Below, in pieces: positions 30,357-38,858 of a stretch of 64,000 nt of DNA. The notes beneath the pieces were generated by a model. That model did not search any database, was not told the origin of the DNA, and worked only from the letters and a program-made list of their open reading frames with translations. Position numbers and translations under genes: made by a program. The first letter of the stretch is position 1. The number at the start of each line of letters is the position of its first letter. Where the stretch lies: positions 13,864 to 77,863 of the forward strand of contig JAZRBV010000073.1 of assembly GCA_045635225.1 (NCBI GenBank), read 5' to 3'. This DNA is from Eubacteriales bacterium. GTDB taxonomy: Bacteria > Bacillota > Clostridia > Oscillospirales > CAG-272.

Positions 30357-31637
30357 ATGTACGATAACCCGACCTACCGTATGTACAAGGATATACTGAG
30401 AGAGGAGCTTCGCGCCGCGATGGGCTGTACCGAGCCTATTGCTATCGCTTACGCCGCGTCGATCCTCCACGACCTGCTCGGTGGAATTCCGACCTCGGTG
30501 CGTGCCGGCTTCAGTGGTAATATTATCAAAAACGTAAAGAGCGTCATAGTGCCGCAGACCGGCGGCAGACACGGTATCGAGGTCGCGATAGCTTCAGGAC
30601 TCGTCTCGGGCAGATACGACAAACGCCTCGAGGTGCTGACTACTCTTACCGAGCTTGATCTTCCGCGCATCGATGTGGTGCTCAAAGACACTGATATCGA
30701 CGTGCGCGAGATATCCGGTGATTGCACCTTCGAGCTTGTGCTCGAGGGAACTCTCGGTGATCTCGACGGTGCGGTGCATATCAGCGGCGAGCATACGAAC
30801 GTTATTCTTGCACGTCGCGGCAGTGAGATAATTACAGAGAAATATCTTGAAAAACTCGACACGGGTGTCATCAAACGTCAGACTGACCGCTCGATTCTGA
30901 GTGTTAAGGGTATCATAGATTTCGCAGAGCATGCTGACATATCGGATATTCGCGAGCTCCTTCTCGGACAGATAAATATGAATATGGATATAGCGCGCGA
31001 GGGACTTCACGGCGCGTGGGGTGCATCTATCGGTAAGGTCATTCTCTCGATCGGAGACGACGTTTCACGTCGAGCGCGAGCGTATGCTGCGGCAGGCTCC
31101 GACGCGAGAATGTCGGGGTGTGAGAAGCCGGTGTGTATCATTTCGGGAAGTGGAAATCAGGGTATCACCGCCTCTGTACCGGTTGCGGTTTATGCCGAGC
31201 ACCTGAACGCGAGCGAGGACGAGCTGCTCCGAGCTCTTATCGTGTCCGACCTGATCACCGTCCATCAGAAGACGGGCATCGGCACCCTCTCAGCCTATTG
31301 CGGTGCTATCAGCGCCGGAGTCGGTGCGGGAGCAGGCATCTGCTACCTGCGCGGCGGCAGATATAGCGAGGTCGCCCACACCGTAGTGAACGCAGTCGCT
31401 ATTCTCTCGGGCACGATCTGCGACGGAGCTAAGCCCTCTTGCGCGGCGAAGATCGCTATGGCAGTTGAGGCGGGAATACTCGGCTTCGAGATGTCACGCC
31501 TCGGTGAGGAATTCCTCGGCGGTGACGGCATCGTCACAAAGGGAGTAGAGAATACCATACGCAACGTCGGCAGACTTGCACGCGACGGTATGAGCGAGAC
31601 TGACCGAGAGATAATCAAGATCATGTTGGATAATTGA
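30357..31637 (+). CDS. UPF0597 / YhaM-type L-cysteine desulfidase family protein
   Basis: EELRAAMGCTEPIAIAYAAS is the N-terminal signature of the serine-dehydratase-alpha-like UPF0597 family. 426 aa. Confidence 0.78.
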   Translation: MYDNPTYRMYKDILREELRAAMGCTEPIAIAYAASILHDLLGGIPTSVRAGFSGNIIKNVKSVIVPQTGGRHGIEVAIASGLVSGRYDKRLEVLTTLTELDLPRIDVVLKDTDIDVREISGDCTFELVLEGTLGDLDGAVHISGEHTNVILARRGSEIITEKYLEKLDTGVIKRQTDRSILSVKGIIDFAEHADISDIRELLLGQINMNMDIAREGLHGAWGASIGKVILSIGDDVSRRARAYAAAGSDARMSGCEKPVCIISGSGNQGITASVPVAVYAEHLNASEDELLRALIVSDLITVHQKTGIGTLSAYCGAISAGVGAGAGICYLRGGRYSEVAHTVVNAVAILSGTICDGAKPSCAAKIAMAVEAGILGFEMSRLGEEFLGGDGIVTKGVENTIRNVGRLARDGMSETDREIIKIMLDN

Positions 31638-31657
31638 CTTATGAAAGGATAAGTCTC

Positions 31658-32989
31658 ATGAAAGAATTAACCGTAAATTTCGACAAAAGACTTGGCAAAG
31701 TGAAGGTGATGAACGCCGTCAACAACGGCCCTGCCGGCAGTAAGGTGCGCGGCACCGGCAACATCGCTGCGTACGAAGCGCTTAAGATCCCGTATGCGAG
31801 AAATCATGATGCCTCCTTCTATTCACCCTACGGCGGTGAACATACGGTTGACGTACACCGTATCTTCAAGAATTTCGATGCCGACGAGAATGATCCTACG
31901 AGCTACGTTTTCGGCCCTACTGACTCTTACGTTTCCGCTACCTTTAATGTCGGTACCGAGGTGTTCTACCGCCTCGGCGCATCTATCGAGCACGGCTACA
32001 AATACGGTACCTATCCGCCAAAGGATTTCGCAAAATGGGCACGCATCTGCGAGCATATAATCCGCCACTATACAGAGGGCTGGGCGGATGGCTATAGCTA
32101 CGATATCGAGTATTGGGAGATATGGAACGAGCCGGATTGTAGAAATGCCGACGGCTCCAATCCCTGCTGGCAGGGAACGGATGACGAGTTCATCGATTTC
32201 TACGAGGTTGTGGCTAAATATCTGAAATCCACTTTCCCGCATCTTAAAATAGGTGGACCCGCATTCTGCTCCTCGTGGAGAAACGACTTCAGAATGGCTT
32301 TTCTACGCGCGGTGAAGGAGCGTAATATTCCTCTCGATTTTTACTCATTCCACGGCTATTTGAAGGACCCGTGTGAAGTTTTTGGGCTCTCGCGCGAGGC
32401 TGTCGCGAGCTTTTCGGAGCTTGGTATACCCACTCCGGAGCTTGTCTACAACGAGTGGAATTACGTCCGCGCCTGGAGCGGTGAGATGTATAAATATTCT
32501 CGCAGGATGAGCAAGCTCACTAAGGGCGCATCCTTGATCGCGGGTGTTATGTGTACGGGTCAGAAGAGCGATATCGATATGCTTATGTATTACGACGCGC
32601 GTCCGGGCGCTTGGTGCGGCATCTTCAATACCGACACACTCGATCCCCTGAAGCCGTATTATTCCTTCGCCTTCTTCAGAGATGTTCGCGAGCTCGGCAC
32701 GTCGGTCGAGACCGTCGATCCCGATGCGATCTATTCGGTGGCATCTGCAGACGATACCGACGGCGCACTTATGCTGACCTATTTTAACGATGACGACAAT
32801 GCACCGGCGGAGAGGGTGAAAATATCGGTAAATGGCAGAAAGGGTACTACCCGTGTCGAGTTTTATCAGCTTGACGATGCTCACGACGGCGAGCTCGTGC
32901 GCGAGGAGATCTTCTCATCCGATAGCTTTAATATCTATCTTGATATGAAGCTCTATGATACCTATCTCTTGAAATTCGTAACAGAATAA
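31658..32989 (+). CDS. Clan GH-A glycoside hydrolase (GH39-like)
   Basis: YWEIWNEPD is the acid/base motif region. No signal peptide. Start at ATG 31658 (RBS aaagga). Confidence 0.6.
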   Translation: MKELTVNFDKRLGKVKVMNAVNNGPAGSKVRGTGNIAAYEALKIPYARNHDASFYSPYGGEHTVDVHRIFKNFDADENDPTSYVFGPTDSYVSATFNVGTEVFYRLGASIEHGYKYGTYPPKDFAKWARICEHIIRHYTEGWADGYSYDIEYWEIWNEPDCRNADGSNPCWQGTDDEFIDFYEVVAKYLKSTFPHLKIGGPAFCSSWRNDFRMAFLRAVKERNIPLDFYSFHGYLKDPCEVFGLSREAVASFSELGIPTPELVYNEWNYVRAWSGEMYKYSRRMSKLTKGASLIAGVMCTGQKSDIDMLMYYDARPGAWCGIFNTDTLDPLKPYYSFAFFRDVRELGTSVETVDPDAIYSVASADDTDGALMLTYFNDDDNAPAERVKISVNGRKGTTRVEFYQLDDAHDGELVREEIFSSDSFNIYLDMKLYDTYLLKFVTE

Positions 32990-32998
32990 TAACAAAAT

Positions 32999-33042
32999 AA
33001 CAACGGCGGAGCGCCGTAGTAATACGGTGCTCCGCCGTTGTT
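32999..33042. terminator. Bidirectional 14-bp hairpin terminator
   Basis: aacaacggcggagc / gctccgccgttgtt, between the GH39-like gene (+) and the 144-aa ORF (-). Confidence 0.8.
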
Positions 33043-33046
33043 ATAT

Positions 33047-33481
33047 TTAGTTGTGCGGTTCACCGACCTCCCACTCGGAGGGGATGATAGCAATGATATC
33101 GTCGCCCTGATTGTTGGTGACGGATTGTACGATTGAATGACCTGCCATCGTCGTACTCTTCTCCCACACGCCGTTTATCTCGTGATATACCTGCTTGTAT
33201 ACGAGTATGGTCGTAGTGCCGGGCGTTGCACCCTCGAGATCTGCAAGTCTCCACATATAAAGATGGTATTCCATATCGGTCACGTACTCGAAGACGAAAT
33301 CAAGGTTATGAGTGTTTCTCGCTTCGCTTGCGAAGTGCTTTATGTGACCGCCCTTGAGATTATCCGAGCTGTAGATGATTCCCTCAACCACGCCGTTATC
33401 GTCAGCTGCGGTGATATTGTCGGGGATAACGTTACCCTTATGCGGATCGTTCAGTCCGTACCCACCGCGGATATCCGACAT
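33047..33481 (-). CDS. Hypothetical soluble protein (144 aa), last gene of the rSAM operon
   Basis: Clean ORF with a weak RBS (tgagg). No TM segment and no recognisable motif. Confidence 0.6.
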   Translation of the reverse strand: MSDIRGGYGLNDPHKGNVIPDNITAADDNGVVEGIIYSSDNLKGGHIKHFASEARNTHNLDFVFEYVTDMEYHLYMWRLADLEGATPGTTTILVYKQVYHEINGVWEKSTTMAGHSIVQSVTNNQGDDIIAIIPSEWEVGEPHN

Positions 33482-33544
33482 CGCTGCCTCAATAAGTGCT
33501 ACAAAATCCTCACCGGCGACTACCTGGATATGAGACTTTTGCGT

Positions 33545-34654
33545 TTAGTGGCTACCCGTGTCGAGCTTTTCGCCCTTTTCCAGCTGCTTTACATCTACGC
33601 CGTCCTTTTGGCTACAGCCGGCACGTCCACCGCCAGCACACGCACATGCACACGCACAGGCACAGGAGTGACCGCCCATACCTCCGCGTCCGATGCCTGC
33701 ACCTAAGCTTTGGTTAGCACTCGCCGCGAGCATAGCCGCGCGATAGGCGGGGTTGACCGCGCCGTATGCGTGTATCGGATGGCCGTGTTCTCTGATAAAT
33801 CCGCGACCTCTGCCGTAGGATACAAAGCTATCGATTATATACACCTCACCGATACCGACGAGGATTATTATGAGTGCGGCAACCACCCAGACGACATACT
33901 TGTCACCATCAAGCGAGTTATATGCACCGTCGCCGTCGAACGGCTCGTATCCGACCGTTCTGACTTCGCTATTGAACACGCGGTTATTATACTCAACGCG
34001 CAGAGAAAGGTAATCGCCCAGCCCGAGCGAGCCCTCCCACACGTATCTGTCCTCAACAAGCTCCGGATCACCGCCAATATAGGTTATGTCGCCGTCATAT
34101 TCCCAACTGAATCTGTAGTGCTCGACCGGTATTTCGTTGAACCAACCGGGCACGAACTCATAAAAATATCCGTCGCCACCGTCCACGAGCATCTCTCTCT
34201 GCTCAACGGCGAACTTAAATCTTACAGTTTCGCCTGCAAGGTACGATTCCTCGAAGTAGAGCCTTGCCGAAACGTAGTCCTCGTCGGTGTATATCTCAGC
34301 ACCTGCAACATTATCGGACAGCGAGTCTGTAAGAAGCGTGCAGTGTTCGTTTGAAAGTCCGATATCTACCCATTCGAGCGGCTCACTTTCAGATAGCGCA
34401 CGCCACAGTATATCATACTCGATGAGCATATATCCGCTCGTCTCGTCGATATCCACGGTTACGTTGTATTCTTCGATCGTGTCGATTGGCTTCGGCTCGT
34501 AGAGCGATGCAAGCACTACGCCTGTGATCTGTATTGCCAATAGCAGAATGAGCAGAGCAATATTTTTCTTTGGCAGAACTCTGCGTTTTTTCACTATCTC
34601 GGGAGAGTAGTTGTTGGTATCATGGTTAACTTTTTTCTTCTTTTTGTCAGCCAT
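33545..34654 (-). CDS. Two-TM membrane protein (DUF2207-like topology) with Gly-rich cytoplasmic tail carrying S-(C-A)5-GGGRAGCS
   Basis: K-rich N-terminus, TM1 (aa ~33-52), a ~230-aa acidic beta-rich domain, TM2 (aa ~255-275), then the tail ...GRGGMGGHSCACACACACAGGGRAGCSQKD. Its ATG overlaps the upstream rSAM stop (ATGGCTGA). Confidence 0.75.
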   Translation of the reverse strand: MADKKKKKVNHDTNNYSPEIVKKRRVLPKKNIALLILLLAIQITGVVLASLYEPKPIDTIEEYNVTVDIDETSGYMLIEYDILWRALSESEPLEWVDIGLSNEHCTLLTDSLSDNVAGAEIYTDEDYVSARLYFEESYLAGETVRFKFAVEQREMLVDGGDGYFYEFVPGWFNEIPVEHYRFSWEYDGDITYIGGDPELVEDRYVWEGSLGLGDYLSLRVEYNNRVFNSEVRTVGYEPFDGDGAYNSLDGDKYVVWVVAALIIILVGIGEVYIIDSFVSYGRGRGFIREHGHPIHAYGAVNPAYRAAMLAASANQSLGAGIGRGGMGGHSCACACACACAGGGRAGCSQKDGVDVKQLEKGEKLDTGSH

Positions 34655-36026
34655 TGCCGTTACCTCCTCGGCGGCGGAAAGGACACTCCTCCGACTCTTT
34701 TTCGGTCATCGAGCGCAGCTCGCGCGAGAGTGGGGAGGACCATATATCCTTAAAATCGTCGGTCAGCAAATTCCCGAGTGTCGCATCTTCTCCGAGCCAG
34801 CTCTGGCATGGAACTGCATCACCGTTCGGTGCTATTGCCATGTTGGAGAGGCACGCGCCGCACGCCGGCACCTTCATACCCAGACTCTCGAGCACCTCGC
34901 GTCCTACAAGTCCCGGGGAGGTGAAGTCGATCTCCATACCGACACCGTCACAGTATTCCTTAGCATCGCGTAGTATCGCCTCGAGCTCGCAACGTGAGAT
35001 GTCGTACCTTTCTGCACGACCGTCGAGCTTTCCGGTTGCGATCAGACCGCTCACCGTCACGAACCTTACTCCGAGAGAATGAATAAACTCAAGGGTCCTT
35101 ACGTAGTCCGAGTTTGCCCCGCACAGCGGTGTGTTTACGCTTACGTCCAGTCCTGCCGCTACTGCGCTTTCAATGCCGCTTACCGTATCGGAAAAGTGCT
35201 CCGCACCAACGAGCGCGTTGTGTGTTTGCTCGTCCTGTGAATAAAGCGTCACCTGTATACTGTCGAGCCCCGCCTCGCGCAGTTTCGCTGCAAGCTTGGG
35301 GGTAAGTAAAACTCCGTTTGTGTTCACACGCGTGACGAATCGACTTGCATACGCTACAAGCTCCGCGAGATCCTCGCGCATTGTCGGCTCTCCGCCCGTG
35401 AATGTCACCATAGGCACGCCGGCATGCCATAGCTTGTCGATTATTCTCTTCCACTCTGCCGTGGATAACTCAGGTGCGGAAGCTTTATTTTGTCCCGCGG
35501 CATAGCAAAATGTACACTTTTGATTACATTTCCAGCATCCTTCGCCATCTGTCATCGCGCTTATCAAGAGATCCATTCTGTGCGGCGCAACCATGCTTTT
35601 GCTGTATTCACGTATCGACATTTTTTCGATATACTCGTCCGGCAGCTCGCCTCTTGCTACCGTGAAGAGTGTGTTGAGTATTTCGTCGAGATCCCATCGG
35701 ATCTCACCGTCACTTACGGCAGGGTAGAGCCGCTTTACTCTTTTAACGGTGCTCGAATATATTGAGGCGGCATCCCCGTCGGAGATCTCGCGGCCGTGGT
35801 ATGGTGTCACCTCGTCGATAAATGCCGAGAGCAGTGTTGCCCACGACTCGCCTATCGGAAGTATATAGTAGCCGTTCAGTATCACCACGTGCGTGCGACT
35901 GCCTACGAGGCTCTTTTTAGGTGGCAAAAGATGTATTCTCACGACTCCGGGACCGTCCGGATTAAATGTGCAGTGTTTTATCTCACCTTTGCCAAAATAT
36001 GCTTTTATTCTTGTAGCTATACTCAT
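34647..36026 (-). CDS. Radical SAM / SPASM-domain enzyme with ~160-aa N-terminal extension
   Basis: CNQKCTFC (CxxxCxxC) lies at aa ~173-180 of the ORF-track protein, with GGEP downstream. The C-terminal Cys cluster is PACGACLSNMAIAPNGDAVPCQSW...ECPF. ATG 36026 (RBS agagg) is preferred over TTG 36044. Confidence 0.85.
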   Translation of the reverse strand: MSIATRIKAYFGKGEIKHCTFNPDGPGVVRIHLLPPKKSLVGSRTHVVILNGYYILPIGESWATLLSAFIDEVTPYHGREISDGDAASIYSSTVKRVKRLYPAVSDGEIRWDLDEILNTLFTVARGELPDEYIEKMSIREYSKSMVAPHRMDLLISAMTDGEGCWKCNQKCTFCYAAGQNKASAPELSTAEWKRIIDKLWHAGVPMVTFTGGEPTMREDLAELVAYASRFVTRVNTNGVLLTPKLAAKLREAGLDSIQVTLYSQDEQTHNALVGAEHFSDTVSGIESAVAAGLDVSVNTPLCGANSDYVRTLEFIHSLGVRFVTVSGLIATGKLDGRAERYDISRCELEAILRDAKEYCDGVGMEIDFTSPGLVGREVLESLGMKVPACGACLSNMAIAPNGDAVPCQSWLGEDATLGNLLTDDFKDIWSSPLSRELRSMTEKESEECPFRRRGGNGNG

Positions 36027-36027
36027 T

Positions 36028-36861
36028 TTAGTACCTCTGATCAAAGGTTATCACACCGCGCTCGATCTCCTCGACCGTTCGTGCAAGTGCGTGTTCCTCG
36101 TTTGATACGGTTATGCGATCTGCGACCGCCTTTACCTCCTCCACCGCATTGCTGACCGCTATGCCGACACCCGCCGCCTCGATCATAGATACGTCGTTGT
36201 TATAGTCGCCGAGTGCCACGGTGCGCTTCATATCTATACCGAGTATACGGCTCATCTCGCGCAGAAGATTTCCCTTACTGTTGCCCTTTGGCAGTATCTC
36301 GTAGAGCAACTTCTCGGAACGTATGAAATCAAACTCCTGCGCCCTTGGATGTGCGTCGAGAAGCTCCGCTACGCGCAATATCGCCTCCTCGCGCATATCG
36401 GCAAACACTACCTTTGCTATAGGAATGTCAAAGCTTTTTATGTCAGCACCGAGATACGGCATGCCCGTCAGACGTCGGTGTAATGCCGTACCGTCGTTAT
36501 CGTATGGAAAATAGAGCTTGTCCTTACAGTTCAGTATAACGCCCATGCCATCGACCGCCTCAGCAATATCCGCGACGACCTCACGAACACTCACGGGCAG
36601 CAGATTCAGCATCAGATATTTTTCCTCGCCGTAATCGTATATTCCACCGCCGTTTATGCATCCAACCGGTGCATTAGGGCGGACCGTGTCGAATATTTTG
36701 CGTGAAAAATAGGGCATACGACCTGTTATGAATGTAAATTTTCCGCCCTCGGATTTAAAGTATTCGAGTGCGTCGAGGTTCTCATGTGAGACCGTTTTAT
36801 CGTTTTTCATCAGCGTGCCGTCGAGATCCGTGCAGATCAGTATTCCGTCAAACTTACCCAT
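36028..36861 (-). CDS. Cof-type HAD-IIB family hydrolase (sugar-phosphatase-like)
   Basis: ILICTDLDGTL is HAD motif I, with FITGR and GDYNNDVSM also present. Start at ATG 36861 (RBS aaaggag). Its stop lies 1 nt before the rSAM ATG. Confidence 0.85.
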   Translation of the reverse strand: MGKFDGILICTDLDGTLMKNDKTVSHENLDALEYFKSEGGKFTFITGRMPYFSRKIFDTVRPNAPVGCINGGGIYDYGEEKYLMLNLLPVSVREVVADIAEAVDGMGVILNCKDKLYFPYDNDGTALHRRLTGMPYLGADIKSFDIPIAKVVFADMREEAILRVAELLDAHPRAQEFDFIRSEKLLYEILPKGNSKGNLLREMSRILGIDMKRTVALGDYNNDVSMIEAAGVGIAVSNAVEEVKAVADRITVSNEEHALARTVEEIERGVITFDQRY

Positions 36862-36959: not shown

Positions 36960-36988
36960 TTGACAATCGAGCGCGCGTGTTGTATAAT
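36960..36988 (+). promoter_or_regulatory. Consensus sigma-A promoter for the second heparinase II/III-like gene
   Basis: TTGACA (36960-36965), 17 nt, TATAAT (36983-36988). Confidence 0.65.
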
Positions 36989-37016
36989 CGTAATGAAAAT
37001 ATTTAAGGAGGCATAT

Positions 37017-38858
37017 ATGTCAAGAAGAGTATTTGAGGAGGGGCGTTTTGACCTATCGGGTCGCGTCCTCACCTACGATAGATATCGCCCGTTTATAGAT
37101 CTTGCGGGTGGATTTACTATCCCCGAGGAGCAGAAGCCGCGCATCATCGCCGAGGCTGATAAGGCGCTCGCGGAGGAGATACCGCAGTTGTCGGCTCACG
37201 AGTATATGATGTTTTCCCGCAACGGCAACCGCTCGATCTATGAGTCAAAATATTTCCCACGCCGCACGATGCTACTTACACTCGCCCTCGGCGAGTACGT
37301 TGAGAGGAAGGGAAGATATACCGATAAGATGATAGATCTCCTCTGGCTCATTCTCGAGGAGACCAGCTGGGTACTGCCGGCACATAATCCGAGCCGCGCA
37401 GGCGTCAATTGTTGCCTGCCATACGCCTATGCAGGGGACGTCGACTATATAGACCTTTTCTCCGCAACAACCGCGGCGACTCTCGCATGTGCATATTACC
37501 TTTGTCGCGAGACTATCGAGGGAGTCTCGACTATAATTACCGACCGTATTCTCTTCGAGATCGACCGCAGGATCATCAAGCCTTTTATGAATGATGACTA
37601 TATGCGTGCATGGTGGTGGACCGGCTGGAGTGCCGCAACGAACAATTGGGCACCGTGGATCGTCTCCAACGTTCTCACGGCTACTGCATTCACTGTGCGC
37701 GATCTCACCACACGCACTGCGATCCTCGAACGCACGATGCCGATACTCGATAACTTCCTATCGCGCTACCACTGTGACGGCGGATGTGACGAGGGTCCCT
37801 CATATTGGGGAGCGGCGGGCGGAGCGCTCTACTCGGCGTGCCTCGTTATGTACGATATGACGGACGGATACGTTAGCGTGTATGATGATCCGCTTATCAA
37901 AAATATGGGTGAATACGTTGTAAAAGCCATCGTAACCCCCACCCGTGTATTGAATTTCGCGGATGCCCCCTCGAAAACCTTGCCGAATCCACACCTCGTT
38001 TATCACTACGGATGCTCGGTCGGCTCGGAGTCTATGATGAGCTATGCTAAGTGGAGAATGAACGGCGAGCTTATGAGCGTCATCCCCGACTCGAACCACC
38101 CGTACAGATGGATGCGCTTCTTGACCACACCGCGACTTGAGCCTACTGATATTACAGTACCGAGGAGCTTCTACATCGGCGGTATCGAGGTTGCAGGCTT
38201 CAGAGAGTGTGACAGACTGGGCGACGGTCTCTACGTCGCCATTAAGGGAGGTAACAATGCCGAGAGCCACAATCATAACGACCTCGGTAATGTAATAGTC
38301 TTCTCGGGTACGACACCTATCTTTATCGACGCAGGCTCCGGCACGTATACGAAGCGCACCTTCAGCTCCGACAGATACACCATATGGTCTATGCGCTCGG
38401 AGTACCATAACTGCGCTACACTTAACGGTGTGAATCAGGAAAACGGCATCGTCGCACATTCGACCGACACTCGCTACGATCCGGACGGCTTGATGTCATT
38501 AGATCTCACCGCGGCATATCCTATAGCGGCAGGTCTTGATTCATATAGACGCGCCGTCTCACTCGCCGACTCCACGGTTACCGTAATAGACGATATAACC
38601 TTTAGTGAGCAGGGAACGGTCACCTTCAACTATCTCGTCAGAGTGAAGCCTGAGATCCTCTCGCAGAACAGCTTTGCGATCGATGGCAGAACAGTCACAT
38701 GCGACCCCGACCTCGACTATGCCGTCGAGCCTGTGGATTGCACCTGGCCGGAGGTCGAGACTATCCCTGCCGGCTGGGATACCGACACTCTCTACCGCAT
38801 AACCCTGACGTCACGTGCCCCCATAAAAACAAAGCACTACACACTCACCGTGCGCTGA
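37017..38858 (+). CDS. Heparinase II/III-like protein (second copy, divergent sequence)
   Basis: ESHNHNDLGNVIVF and YHNCATLNGVNQ are Hepar_II_III-type motifs. No signal peptide. Start at ATG 37017 (RBS taaggagg). Confidence 0.72.
   Translation: MSRRVFEEGRFDLSGRVLTYDRYRPFIDLAGGFTIPEEQKPRIIAEADKALAEEIPQLSAHEYMMFSRNGNRSIYESKYFPRRTMLLTLALGEYVERKGRYTDKMIDLLWLILEETSWVLPAHNPSRAGVNCCLPYAYAGDVDYIDLFSATTAATLACAYYLCRETIEGVSTIITDRILFEIDRRIIKPFMNDDYMRAWWWTGWSAATNNWAPWIVSNVLTATAFTVRDLTTRTAILERTMPILDNFLSRYHCDGGCDEGPSYWGAAGGALYSACLVMYDMTDGYVSVYDDPLIKNMGEYVVKAIVTPTRVLNFADAPSKTLPNPHLVYHYGCSVGSESMMSYAKWRMNGELMSVIPDSNHPYRWMRFLTTPRLEPTDITVPRSFYIGGIEVAGFRECDRLGDGLYVAIKGGNNAESHNHNDLGNVIVFSGTTPIFIDAGSGTYTKRTFSSDRYTIWSMRSEYHNCATLNGVNQENGIVAHSTDTRYDPDGLMSLDLTAAYPIAAGLDSYRRAVSLADSTVTVIDDITFSEQGTVTFNYLVRVKPEILSQNSFAIDGRTVTCDPDLDYAVEPVDCTWPEVETIPAGWDTDTLYRITLTSRAPIKTKHYTLTVR

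Follow-up and report, generated by a model that had tools for sequence, protein, structure and literature searches.

The functional unit at this locus, judged from genomic comparisons, is a two-gene module shared by many gut anaerobes, which comprises a radical SAM (rSAM) enzyme and a membrane protein with a Cys-Ala-repeat tail. We consider it probable that the enzyme modifies the tail of its partner in place, likely by cross-linking. The module lies on the minus strand of the window, i.e., the entire 64,000-nucleotide stretch of DNA analyzed, and the following features are referred to below (positions are those of the window).

36028..36861, minus strand: Cof-type HAD-IIB phosphatase (TIGR00099), co-transcribed here and outside the conserved unit
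34647..36026, minus strand: rSAM enzyme (459 aa) with an N-terminal family-specific domain, rSAM core, and probable twitch-like auxiliary-cluster domain
35547..36026, minus strand: N-terminal domain of the rSAM enzyme (approximately residues 1–160), which may recognize the partner protein, from AlphaFold2 topology
35505..35528, minus strand: CX3CX2C triad C167, C171, and C174 (CNQKCTFC) for the SAM-cleaving [4Fe-4S] cluster, invariant in alignments A2 and A3
34683..34862, minus strand: putative twitch-like auxiliary-cluster region (C389-x12-G402-x4-C407 and C448; C302 lies upstream), from conserved Cys
33545..34654, minus strand: partner membrane protein (369 aa), predicted order cytoplasmic N-terminus, TM1, extracytoplasmic beta-sandwich, TM2, cytoplasmic tail
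33905..34498, minus strand: predicted acidic extracytoplasmic beta-sandwich of the partner (approximately residues 53–250; AlphaFold2 pLDDT >90)
33602..33664, minus strand: near-invariant tail motif CACACACACAGGGRAGCSQKD (residues 331–351), proposed site of rSAM action, from conservation among homologues
33047..33523, minus strand: 3′ remnant of a secreted-protein gene (product of approximately 361 aa), probably a pseudogene, containing a 144-aa ORF, from clustering and alignment
32997–33044, unstranded: bidirectional intrinsic terminator with a 20-pair GC-rich stem (12 GC pairs) and T-runs on both strands

These genes are tightly arranged. The HAD gene (36861..36028) ends with a TAA at 36030–36028, 1 nt ahead of the rSAM ATG at 36026, and the TGA of the rSAM gene (36026..34647) overlaps with the ATG of the membrane protein gene in ATGGCTGA (34654–34647). 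The membrane protein gene (34654..33545) is separated by 63 nt from the 144-aa ORF (33481..33047). All coordinates, junctions, and overlaps, together with the position of the tail, match their placement in an earlier note on this DNA. The common terminator that the note placed 3′ of the genes was recovered as the hairpin at 32997–33044; this hairpin sits between convergent genes and is hence bidirectional.

Genome scans from both directions support the proposal that the rSAM enzyme and the tailed membrane protein are functionally linked, a proposal that withstood the refuting conditions named in the earlier note for family membership and neighborhood. When the scan was seeded with the membrane protein, a full-length rSAM orthologue (43–65% identical) directly adjoined in 77 of 80 loci and the other three were cut by contig ends, though the tail itself was one search pattern and hence introduces ascertainment bias. 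In the rSAM-seeded scan, which is biased in its turn since it is limited to orthologues at ≥47% identity, the tail motif was present in 53 of the 56 complete downstream genes. The tail is absent from the remaining three loci; one of these, L111, diverges exactly at the tail, reflecting either true loss or a broken assembly. No third gene was conserved around the pair across the scanned loci. The module is widespread among anaerobic Firmicutes of the gut and rumen, and occurs also in Eggerthellaceae and Anaeroplasma.

The linkage extends to joint loss of the catalytic triad and the tail. In three distant pairs (L164, L166, and L167), the CX3CX2C motif of the rSAM protein is degenerate and the homologous partners lack the Cys tail; two other distant pairs (L169 and L171) have an intact triad and keep the tail. 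Fisher's test on this association (55/58 vs. 0/3) gave p = 5.6e-4, with the co-loss sample consisting of three pairs that possibly derive from one or two lineages. Triad-less rSAM homologues nevertheless stay with tail-less partners; the pair hence has some function independent of both the SAM cluster and the tail, which counts against the reading of tail modification.

We analyzed the topology and conservation of the partner protein. AlphaFold2 predicts TM helices at residues 29–51 and 247–284, and the charges are distributed accordingly: the N-terminus carries 11 K+R, the ectodomain 45 D+E against 11 K+R, and the C-terminal part 10 K+R. In one variant, a Nudix domain is fused after the tail motif. 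These three lines of evidence assign the tail to the cytoplasm, bearing out the earlier proposal of a Lys-rich N-terminus, two TM helices, and a tail in the cytoplasm. More than 2161 homologues of the partner were recovered, and none of them falls in a Pfam or NCBIfam family. For the partner itself, no profile in Pfam, NCBIfam, or PADLOC matched at E ≤ 0.01; resemblances are found at the fold level only, where the ectodomain matches ribophorin I/Ost1 and the beta-sandwich at the N-terminus of M1 aminopeptidases.

The tail reads GMGGHS-CACACACACA-GGGRAGCS, and its degenerate DNA pattern occurs once in the window compared to zero occurrences expected by chance. The motif is present in 119 of the top 120 homologues, with the consensus (CA)4-5-GGGRAGC[S/T]xK, and the conserved block reaches an unforced invariant Lys at +7 that is followed by [D/N]-[F/T]-Y. 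The 140 instances surveyed comprise 130 distinct DNA versions and only 4 distinct peptide versions; codon third positions are 43% identical, both Arg codon families are used, and identity of the ectodomain drops to 24–30% among homologues. This pattern of substitution indicates that the motif is under strong selection at the protein level.

Tail-bearing proteins are 240–530 aa in length. We found no free precursor peptide, in agreement with the lack of a short precursor ORF reported earlier, and short tail-bearing database entries proved to be frameshift or partial gene calls. RiPP clusters combine a leader-core precursor with functions for leader removal and export; such a cluster was rejected here, given that the pair is accompanied by no conserved gene of any kind, peptidases and transporters included, and that the motif resides in a protein of this size. 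Searches for a Pfam or NCBIfam model or a published description of the partner, the motif, or the pairing found none, and neither did a search for a described precursor family matching (CA)n-GGGRAGC. The two-gene unit is undescribed.

The enzyme itself is a member of the radical SAM superfamily, as indicated by its score against Radical_SAM (PF04055; 85 bits, cutoff 29.5), its fold match to rSAM structures, and the invariance of the CxxxCxxC motif, identified previously and corresponding to C167, C171, and C174, in all 152 assessable orthologues. Its C-terminal Cys cluster had been described as SPASM-like. The presence of the cluster and a match to Pfam SPASM (PF13186, 40 bits) stand, but the domain is probably twitch-like. 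SPASM enzymes carry two auxiliary clusters and a seven-Cys motif, CX9-15GX4C ... CX2CX5CX3C ... C; in the alignment, the CX2CX5CX3C block is absent, only C302, C389, C407, and C448 are invariant among the auxiliary Cys, and C392 is variable. A full SPASM domain was therefore rejected. Twitch-type enzymes such as BtrN, MoaA, and SkfB have a truncated SPASM domain with ligands for one auxiliary cluster. With its four invariant Cys and best matches to SkfB, BtrN, and MoaA, the enzyme is predicted to hold a single, twitch-like auxiliary cluster.

Searches against curated families placed the enzyme in none of them. No NCBIfam family matched at its cutoff; among the 25 listed of 66 matching families, NirJ2 ranked first (123 bits, cutoff 500) and the pseudo-rSAM/SPASM family TIGR04347 second (115 bits, cutoff 525). 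The SkfB family (TIGR04403) was rejected at 61.8 bits against an equivalog cutoff of 300, even though, among solved structures, SkfB (6efn) is the closest in sequence (E = 2e-22 over the core and C-terminal domain). The best fold matches are SkfB, SuiB, and CteB over 420–450 aligned columns, with anSME also among the top. Enzymes of the anSME type have two auxiliary clusters and act on the motif C/S-x-P/A-x-R; anSME was rejected on the single auxiliary cluster predicted here, a tail without CxPxR/CxAxR, and a PDB sequence match of only E = 3e-7. SCIFF systems, in which a six-Cys precursor of approximately 45 aa adjoins a ScfB-family maturase, were rejected: we found no short precursor, and the NCBIfam matches listed do not include ScfB. 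A prokaryotic viperin or other anti-phage defense role was also rejected, since the PADLOC pVip matches cover core residues 166–300 only (approximately 58 bits) and no defense neighborhood is conserved around the pair across the scanned loci.

The N-terminal domain is specific to this family and a candidate RRE-like recognition domain. The RRE (PqqD-like) is a winged helix-turn-helix that binds the precursor, with a three-stranded sheet followed by three helices. The AlphaFold2 model contains strands at residues 17–21, 29–34, 46–50, and 54–58, then helices at 60–76, 83–100, and 106–124, and full-length fold alignments match RRE-bearing maturases. The predicted topology of strands followed by three helices thus agrees with the earlier suggestion of a peptide-recognition domain, but sequence searches of the RRE type gave no match: no Pfam family, PqqD included, was matched even at E ≤ 10, and no PDB sequence significantly. 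The domain occurs in only 215 clusters among 1.84 billion representatives, always at the N-terminus and almost always in proteins of no more than approximately 470 aa.

In the mechanism that we favor, the cytoplasmic rSAM enzyme, equipped with a recognition-type domain, core, and one auxiliary Fe-S cluster, would dock on the membrane partner encoded downstream. It would then post-translationally modify a block of the disordered cytoplasmic tail, (Cys-Ala)4-5-Gly-Gly-Gly-Arg-Ala-Gly-Cys-[Ser/Thr]-x-Lys, such that the putative substrate forms part of a full-length membrane protein rather than a free leader-core peptide. Given that SkfB, CteB, and SuiB are the closest solved relatives, the most likely chemistry would be H-atom abstraction followed by intramolecular cross-linking, e.g., thioethers from Cys sulfur to Ala carbon, with the auxiliary cluster holding or oxidizing the substrate.

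An unlikely alternative, though the best-placed of those considered, is that the tail binds metal or Fe-S clusters and is not a substrate; it would supply or relay clusters or electrons to the rSAM enzyme or tether the enzyme at the membrane, and the enzyme would act elsewhere, e.g., on a lipid or envelope precursor. Cys, His, Gly, and Ser are abundant around the motif, a composition that would also suit a metal-binding tail, as in the CxC motifs of metallothioneins and the Cys/His-rich tail of SlyD. Alternating Cys would line one face of an extended strand, Lachnospiraceae tails contain extra CAHSSC units with His- and Ser-rich stretches, Oscillospiraceae versions have a His-rich juxtamembrane stretch, and a tail that served the SAM cluster would likewise be expected to disappear together with the Cys of this cluster. 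However, metal-binding low-complexity tails are usually variable, whereas Ala, Gly, Arg, and Lys are here as fixed as Cys, which is a better fit to enzyme recognition. Moreover, four invariant Cys of the enzyme would already ligate the auxiliary cluster, and the closest solved relatives are peptide maturases. Partial matches of the core to the lipid-modifying enzyme GDGT-MAS/Tes would favor a lipid substrate, but no lipid or envelope gene is conserved near the pair.

If the tail is the substrate, the chemistry could still be other than thioether formation, e.g., formylglycine (anSME), epimerization of Ala or Cys (YydG, EpeE), or a Lys/aromatic cross-link (the Lys-Trp type of SuiB); we regard this as rather improbable. 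The rank of anSME and SuiB among the top fold matches speaks for it, as do core-level sequence matches to WgkB and anSME-type families and the invariant Lys at +7 with the residues that follow. Against it, though not decisively, no sulfatase motif C-x-[P/A]-x-R occurs in the tail, the two auxiliary clusters of anSME-type enzymes contrast with the one predicted here, and SkfB ranks first by both sequence and fold.

It is very improbable that all four co-transcribed genes form one modification system, as the earlier note had put forward on the basis of their tight packing and common terminator. The HAD product scores 151.5 bits against TIGR00099 (cutoff 137) and the HAD-rSAM-membrane order is retained in L163, the closest relative (87% identical), but in no other: a HAD gene adjoined the pair in 0 of 80 genome-scan loci, and distant homologues were present in 2 of 80, kilobases away and on the opposite strand. 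A counterpart of the 144-aa ORF was found in 0 of 160 scanned loci. At 90% identity, its product falls into a cluster with proteins of 355–370 aa and aligns to their C-terminal end, homology to the longer gene continues upstream of its ATG, and the counterpart gene in L163 is 5′-truncated with in-frame stops; the region in the window is a truncated remnant of the longer gene, probably a pseudogene. The reported 63-nt gap is correct as a distance, but it is not an intergenic spacer because the longer-gene homology crosses it to approximately position 33523.

The modification of the tail by its paired enzyme may amount to a new kind of protein maturation, at a little under an even chance in our estimation, in which a dedicated rSAM enzyme rewrites the cytoplasmic tail of its own membrane partner into a thioether ladder, a Cys-derived cofactor, or a metal site. 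If so, an extracytoplasmic beta-sandwich would be coupled to a chemically modified intracellular module, and the catalytically dead enzyme-partner pairs would be a derived, tail-less form.

Among known systems, the sporulation killing factor maturase SkfB of Bacillus subtilis is the closest. In SkfB, an additional N-terminal domain precedes the rSAM core, and the C-terminal domain holds one auxiliary cluster; the enzyme described here is predicted to be built in the same way. The cross-link that SkfB makes runs from a Cys sulfur to a carbon in a different residue. The SkfB substrate is a small secreted peptide from a multi-gene operon with export and immunity functions; in contrast, the enzyme here would act on the tail of its 369-aa membrane partner, and no further gene is conserved. 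The sactipeptide, ranthipeptide, and SCIFF maturases CteB, Tte1186/ScfB, and PapB likewise use recognition domains and act on Cys-rich, often repeated motifs, but in these enzymes the SPASM domain is complete, with two auxiliary clusters, and the precursors are free peptides of approximately 45 aa; StsB is the only sactipeptide maturase among the 25 of 66 families listed (79 bits, cutoff 625), with CteB not listed. Modification of a motif inside a full-length protein, as proposed here, is performed by anSME on sulfatases, QhpD on the QHNDH gamma subunit, and HxsB/HxsC on HxsA, a His-Xaa-Ser repeat effector with tandem short repeats (PMC13128918). These systems differ in motifs, enzyme families (HxsC, TIGR03977, 51 bits against a cutoff of 268), and compartments, their targets being soluble or exported whereas the present one is membrane-anchored with a cytoplasmic tail. 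Finally, pseudo-rSAM/SPASM proteins (e.g., TIGR04347) resemble the distant members of our family in having lost the triad while remaining conserved and paired with partners; the enzyme in the window, at 115 bits against a cutoff of 525, differs from them in its intact triad.

The radical SAM enzyme (rSAM, 459 aa) and the adjoining Cys-Ala-tailed membrane protein (the partner, 369 aa) form a self-contained two-gene module, with extreme protein-level constraint on the C-terminal tail of the partner, reciprocal adjacency of the two genes, and joint loss of the tail and the CX3CX2C triad of the enzyme. In the window, the pair lies among four minus-strand genes that the earlier note had put forward as a candidate protein-modification system; the ORF list and the sequence bore out its anatomy of these genes:

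36861..36028, minus strand: HAD gene; its TAA ends 1 nt ahead of the rSAM ATG at 36026
36026..34647, minus strand: rSAM gene; its TGA overlaps the partner ATG (ATGGCTGA, 34654-34647)
34654..33545, minus strand: partner (membrane-protein) gene; the C-terminal part of its product reads GMGGHSCACACACACAGGGRAGCSQKDGVD
33481..33047, minus strand: 144-aa ORF, 63 nt after the partner gene
32997-33044: 20-bp GC-rich hairpin between convergent genes, able to terminate both

The plus-strand genes on either side (36960-38858 and 31634-32989) resemble genes for polysaccharide utilisation. In L163, the most closely related locus, the counterpart of the upstream, divergent one gave a weak match to the heparinase II/III C-terminal domain, and neither flanking gene is linked to the rSAM-partner module in other genomes. 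The nearest relative of the source organism in the genome scan was a Candidatus Flemingiibacterium MAG, with 65% rSAM identity over a contig-truncated match; several other loci reached 61-62% over the full length.

A scan seeded with the membrane protein, using one genome per species, yielded 80 loci from Oscillospiraceae, Acutalibacteraceae, Lachnospiraceae, Ruminococcus, Butyrivibrio, Gemmiger, Anaerovoracaceae, Eggerthellaceae, uncultured Bacilli, and Anaeroplasma. In 77 of the 80, the gene just upstream of the partner was a full-length orthologue of rSAM at 43-65% identity, on the same strand in 75 and divergent in two; the remaining three loci were cut by contig ends. Clustering all ORFs of these loci returned the rSAM and partner families only, with no third conserved gene; ABC ATPases and histidine kinases were rejected as a third member, being ubiquitous and at scattered positions. 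Because the scan had used the tail among its search patterns, the linkage test was repeated from the rSAM side on metagenome contigs. The tail was present in 53 of the 56 rSAM-seeded loci with a complete downstream gene, a count that, like those of the first scan, carries ascertainment bias. The tail-less loci were L090 (different C-terminus), L113 (short ORF), and L111, whose DNA is 86% identical to that of the tailed locus L110 up to the tail and unrelated beyond; we cannot tell whether this absence is a real deletion or an assembly break. In L111 (5251-6300, human-gut lineage), the partner ends in a Cys-free GGGSFGGG-type Gly-rich tail beside an intact rSAM. The triad was kept in all assessable rSAM orthologues (152/152, from 160 loci).

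The partner has more than 2161 homologues at E<=0.001, all unnamed and mostly from Clostridia metagenome-assembled genomes. Clustered at 90% identity, the partner proteins number upwards of 2000 clusters; the module occurs in at least 113 species-level genomes and on many human-gut and rumen metagenome contigs. Neither the partner nor the 144-aa product matched Pfam, NCBIfam, or PADLOC. An AlphaFold2 model of the partner (pLDDT 79) comprises a TM helix (29-51), a confident beta-sandwich (58-223), and a long helix (247-284), beyond which the protein, motif included, is disordered. By fold, the beta-sandwich is similar to two known domains, the luminal one of ribophorin I/Ost1 and the N-terminal one of M1 aminopeptidases; this modelled likeness says little about function. 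Some relatives carry a cleavable-looking signal peptide instead of TM1, and in two (P0114 of L003, 528 aa, and the L012 protein) the tail motif lies inside the protein, with a fused domain behind it (in P0114, a Nudix hydrolase, PF00293); the motif therefore need not be at the extreme C-terminus. Charge distribution, the signal-peptide relatives, and the Nudix-fused variant put the tail in the cytoplasm, where radical SAM enzymes work.

Between the membrane and the tail, Lachnospiraceae partners have, on the cytoplasmic side, an added insert resembling a zinc ribbon (CPxCG...CxYCGRS) together with a GTYRYxSSPNTYxRVxV block, and their Cys units are longer (CAHSSC / CASSC); these features were seen in L119, L122, L134, L151-L154, and many others (e.g., L032, L036). 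Many partners also show a loose juxtamembrane motif, aromatic-x2-5-G-F/GFG, after TM2 (window residues ~275-286, DSFVSYGRGRGF), which tail-less partners share (NDSYKKNKGF, NDSYRKNSGFGF, YINGRGIF). As a lead only, this motif may be a docking site for rSAM; matches to aromatic-x2-5-G-F are loose and uneven among partners.

The tail itself is almost invariant. Among the best 120 of the more than 2161 homologues, which are 41-52% identical to the partner save for one 91% relative, 119 carry CACACACAGGGRAGC and the exception is truncated. Alignment of 128 distinct tails, anchored on GRAGC, gave the consensus (CA)4-5-GGG-R-A-G-C-[S/T]-x-K-[D/N]-[F/T]-Y, in which conservation reaches 99-100% at positions unforced by the search pattern, among them the Ala positions and Lys at +7. 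One Lachnospiraceae subclade has SSGRAGC in place of GGGRAGC (variant tail CASSCACACACASSGRAGC) and is counted among the 53 tailed rSAM-seeded loci. As DNA, the 140 instances fall into 130 different sequences, and they encode only four peptide versions; identity at third codon positions is 43%, and both CGN and AGR codons are used for Arg. The constraint therefore acts on the protein and does not reflect a DNA repeat. The window contains a single occurrence of a degenerate DNA pattern for the tail, where chance predicts 0. The candidate substrate is a block of 18-20 residues, nearly unchanged across bacterial classes and composed of Cys, Ala, Gly, Arg, Ser/Thr, and Lys only. A tail-only protein search gave no evidence of free precursor peptides, returning only entries of 43-83 aa; both short entries looked up (P0253 and P0267) lie behind or inside a partial membrane-protein gene. 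In P0353 (L165) and in P0269 and P0271, two further hits of the tail-only search, half of rSAM, an rSAM start, or a DnaJ-like N-terminus is joined directly to the tail; these are probably assembly or deletion chimeras formed via Gly-rich or repetitive sequence.

rSAM is a member of the radical SAM superfamily, with Pfam matches to Radical_SAM and SPASM. It fell below every curated NCBIfam cutoff, with NirJ2 as best match (123 bits vs. 500), and SkfB (62/300), PqqE (80/381), and HxsC (51/268) likewise short of theirs. In an alignment of 18 diverse orthologues, C167, C171, and C174 (CNQKCxxCY) and the GGE motif (FTGGEPT) are invariant; the only further invariant Cys residues are C302, C389, C407, and C448, while C392 varies. 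The CX9-15GX4C-type hairpin is common to SPASM and twitch domains, and a CX2CX5CX3C block is a feature of full SPASM domains. The enzyme has the former (C389-x12-G402-x4-C407) and lacks the latter; with four invariant auxiliary Cys, it is read as twitch-like and predicted to hold one auxiliary cluster. Apparent in-frame stops in the rSAM genes of L066 and L076 are natural stop codons, so recoding was rejected; an anti-phage defence role was also rejected, as PADLOC yielded nothing beyond generic, core-level similarity to viperins.

Among PDB sequences searched by profile, SkfB came first (E=2e-22), followed by GDGT-MAS, PqqE, BlsE, SuiB, MoaA, BtrN, CteB, and anSME. In an AlphaFold2 model (pLDDT 83.5, pTM 0.86), the N-terminal domain consists of four strands followed by three helices. 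Foldseek against the PDB placed SkfB, SuiB, and CteB on top with 420-450 aligned columns, so that these alignments take in their N-terminal recognition domains. On its own, the N-terminal domain gave no significant match, either in Pfam at E<=10 with eight rSAM N-terminal domains as queries or by profile against PDB sequences, and its description as similar to a peptide-recognition domain (RRE) is therefore a structural inference. The first 160 residues matched only 215 clusters among 1.84 billion representative proteins, always at the N-terminus and almost all in proteins of ~470 aa or less; the domain is thus specific to this rSAM family.

More distant members of the family link the state of the enzyme to that of the tail. 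The triad is missing in six of 27 near-full-length distant rSAM members (>=380 aa). In those listed below, a single triad Cys is lost, not always the same one; P0383, whose full sequence was inspected, retains the Cys residues of the auxiliary cluster. Three of the six were traced to contigs that hold the whole partner gene:

L164:1031-3130, triad-less pair with rSAM member P0383
L166:2501-4621, triad-less pair with rSAM member P0377
L167:2456-4659, triad-less pair with rSAM member P0438

The partners in these loci are homologous, each with either a signal or a TM segment, a beta-sandwich that opens in the same way, and a single TM, and they stop shortly past the membrane without a Cys tail; the pairs look like pseudo-enzyme pairs. 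A fourth (P0442/L168) was left out of the count because its contig ends inside the partner gene. Two members at the same distance whose triad is intact (P0385/L169 and P0393/L171) are paired with tailed partners (SSCACVSSCACACAGGGRAGCN and CACASCACACACAGGGKVGCS); L170, cut off by its contig, was left out. Pooled, the tail accompanies 55 of 58 intact enzymes vs. none of three degenerate ones (p = 5.6e-4, with small numbers and lineages that are not independent). The direction of co-loss is the one expected if enzyme and tail were linked by catalysis, and the persistence of pairs without catalysis suggests that rSAM and the partner probably also interact physically.

We infer that rSAM, perhaps by way of its N-terminal domain, binds the partner, and that the (CA)n-GGGRAGC block is what it modifies. 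Intramolecular Cys-sulfur-to-carbon cross-links are the chemistry that we favour, if loosely, since the nearest relatives of rSAM are SkfB and CteB and since, besides Cys, the block has only small residues. The main rival, that the tail binds a metal or Fe-S cluster and serves rSAM instead of being its substrate, appears less likely given that the non-Cys positions of the tail are also invariant.

The other two genes of the proposed four-gene system fell away. The HAD protein is a Cof-type HAD-IIB phosphatase (TIGR00099, 151.5 bits vs. a cutoff of 137), of which distant homologues occur in just two of the 80 loci, kilobases off and on the opposite strand. The HAD-rSAM-partner order recurs in L163 (rSAM 87% identical), and the gene is best read as a lineage-specific neighbour. 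The 144-aa ORF is found in none of the 80 loci. Its product clusters at 90% identity with 355-370-aa proteins and equals their C-terminal end, lacking the signal peptide, N-terminal domain, and PGGDE-repeat linker of these relatives (~361-aa gene). Homology to the longer gene runs upstream of the ATG of the ORF to ~33523, and the L163 counterpart (L163:7655-8577) is longer, 5'-truncated, and interrupted by in-frame stops; the junction TAAACGCAAAA after the partner stop codon is common to the window (33047-33544, minus strand) and L163. Together, the C-terminal match, the upstream homology, and the L163 stops suggest that the ORF is best read as a decaying 3' remnant of a ~361-aa secreted-protein gene, a pseudogene in L163.

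Neither the partner nor its motif has a Pfam or NCBIfam model, and no account of the partner, motif, or pairing turned up in full-text literature searches, which covered the strings GGGRAGC and CACACAGGG; matches of the CACACAGGG type were DNA primers. As a clean two-gene unit without a described family, the module is easy to clone and test. Once defined, the modification would provide a new substrate class for twitch-type enzymes and a starting point for working out what a large uncharacterised membrane-protein family of gut anaerobes does. Much new peptide chemistry comes from radical SAM maturases, and to our knowledge nearly all those characterised act on small free peptides, whereas the candidate substrate here sits on a membrane protein. 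rSAM resembles twitch-type peptide maturases and meets no curated family threshold. The nearest concepts are radical SAM enzymes that mature whole proteins, such as anSME and QhpD; whole-protein maturation is also carried out by HxsB/HxsC on a His-Xaa-Ser repeat effector (PMC13128918). In contrast to these whole-protein systems, rSAM is proposed to act on an integral membrane protein, at its cytoplasmic tail.
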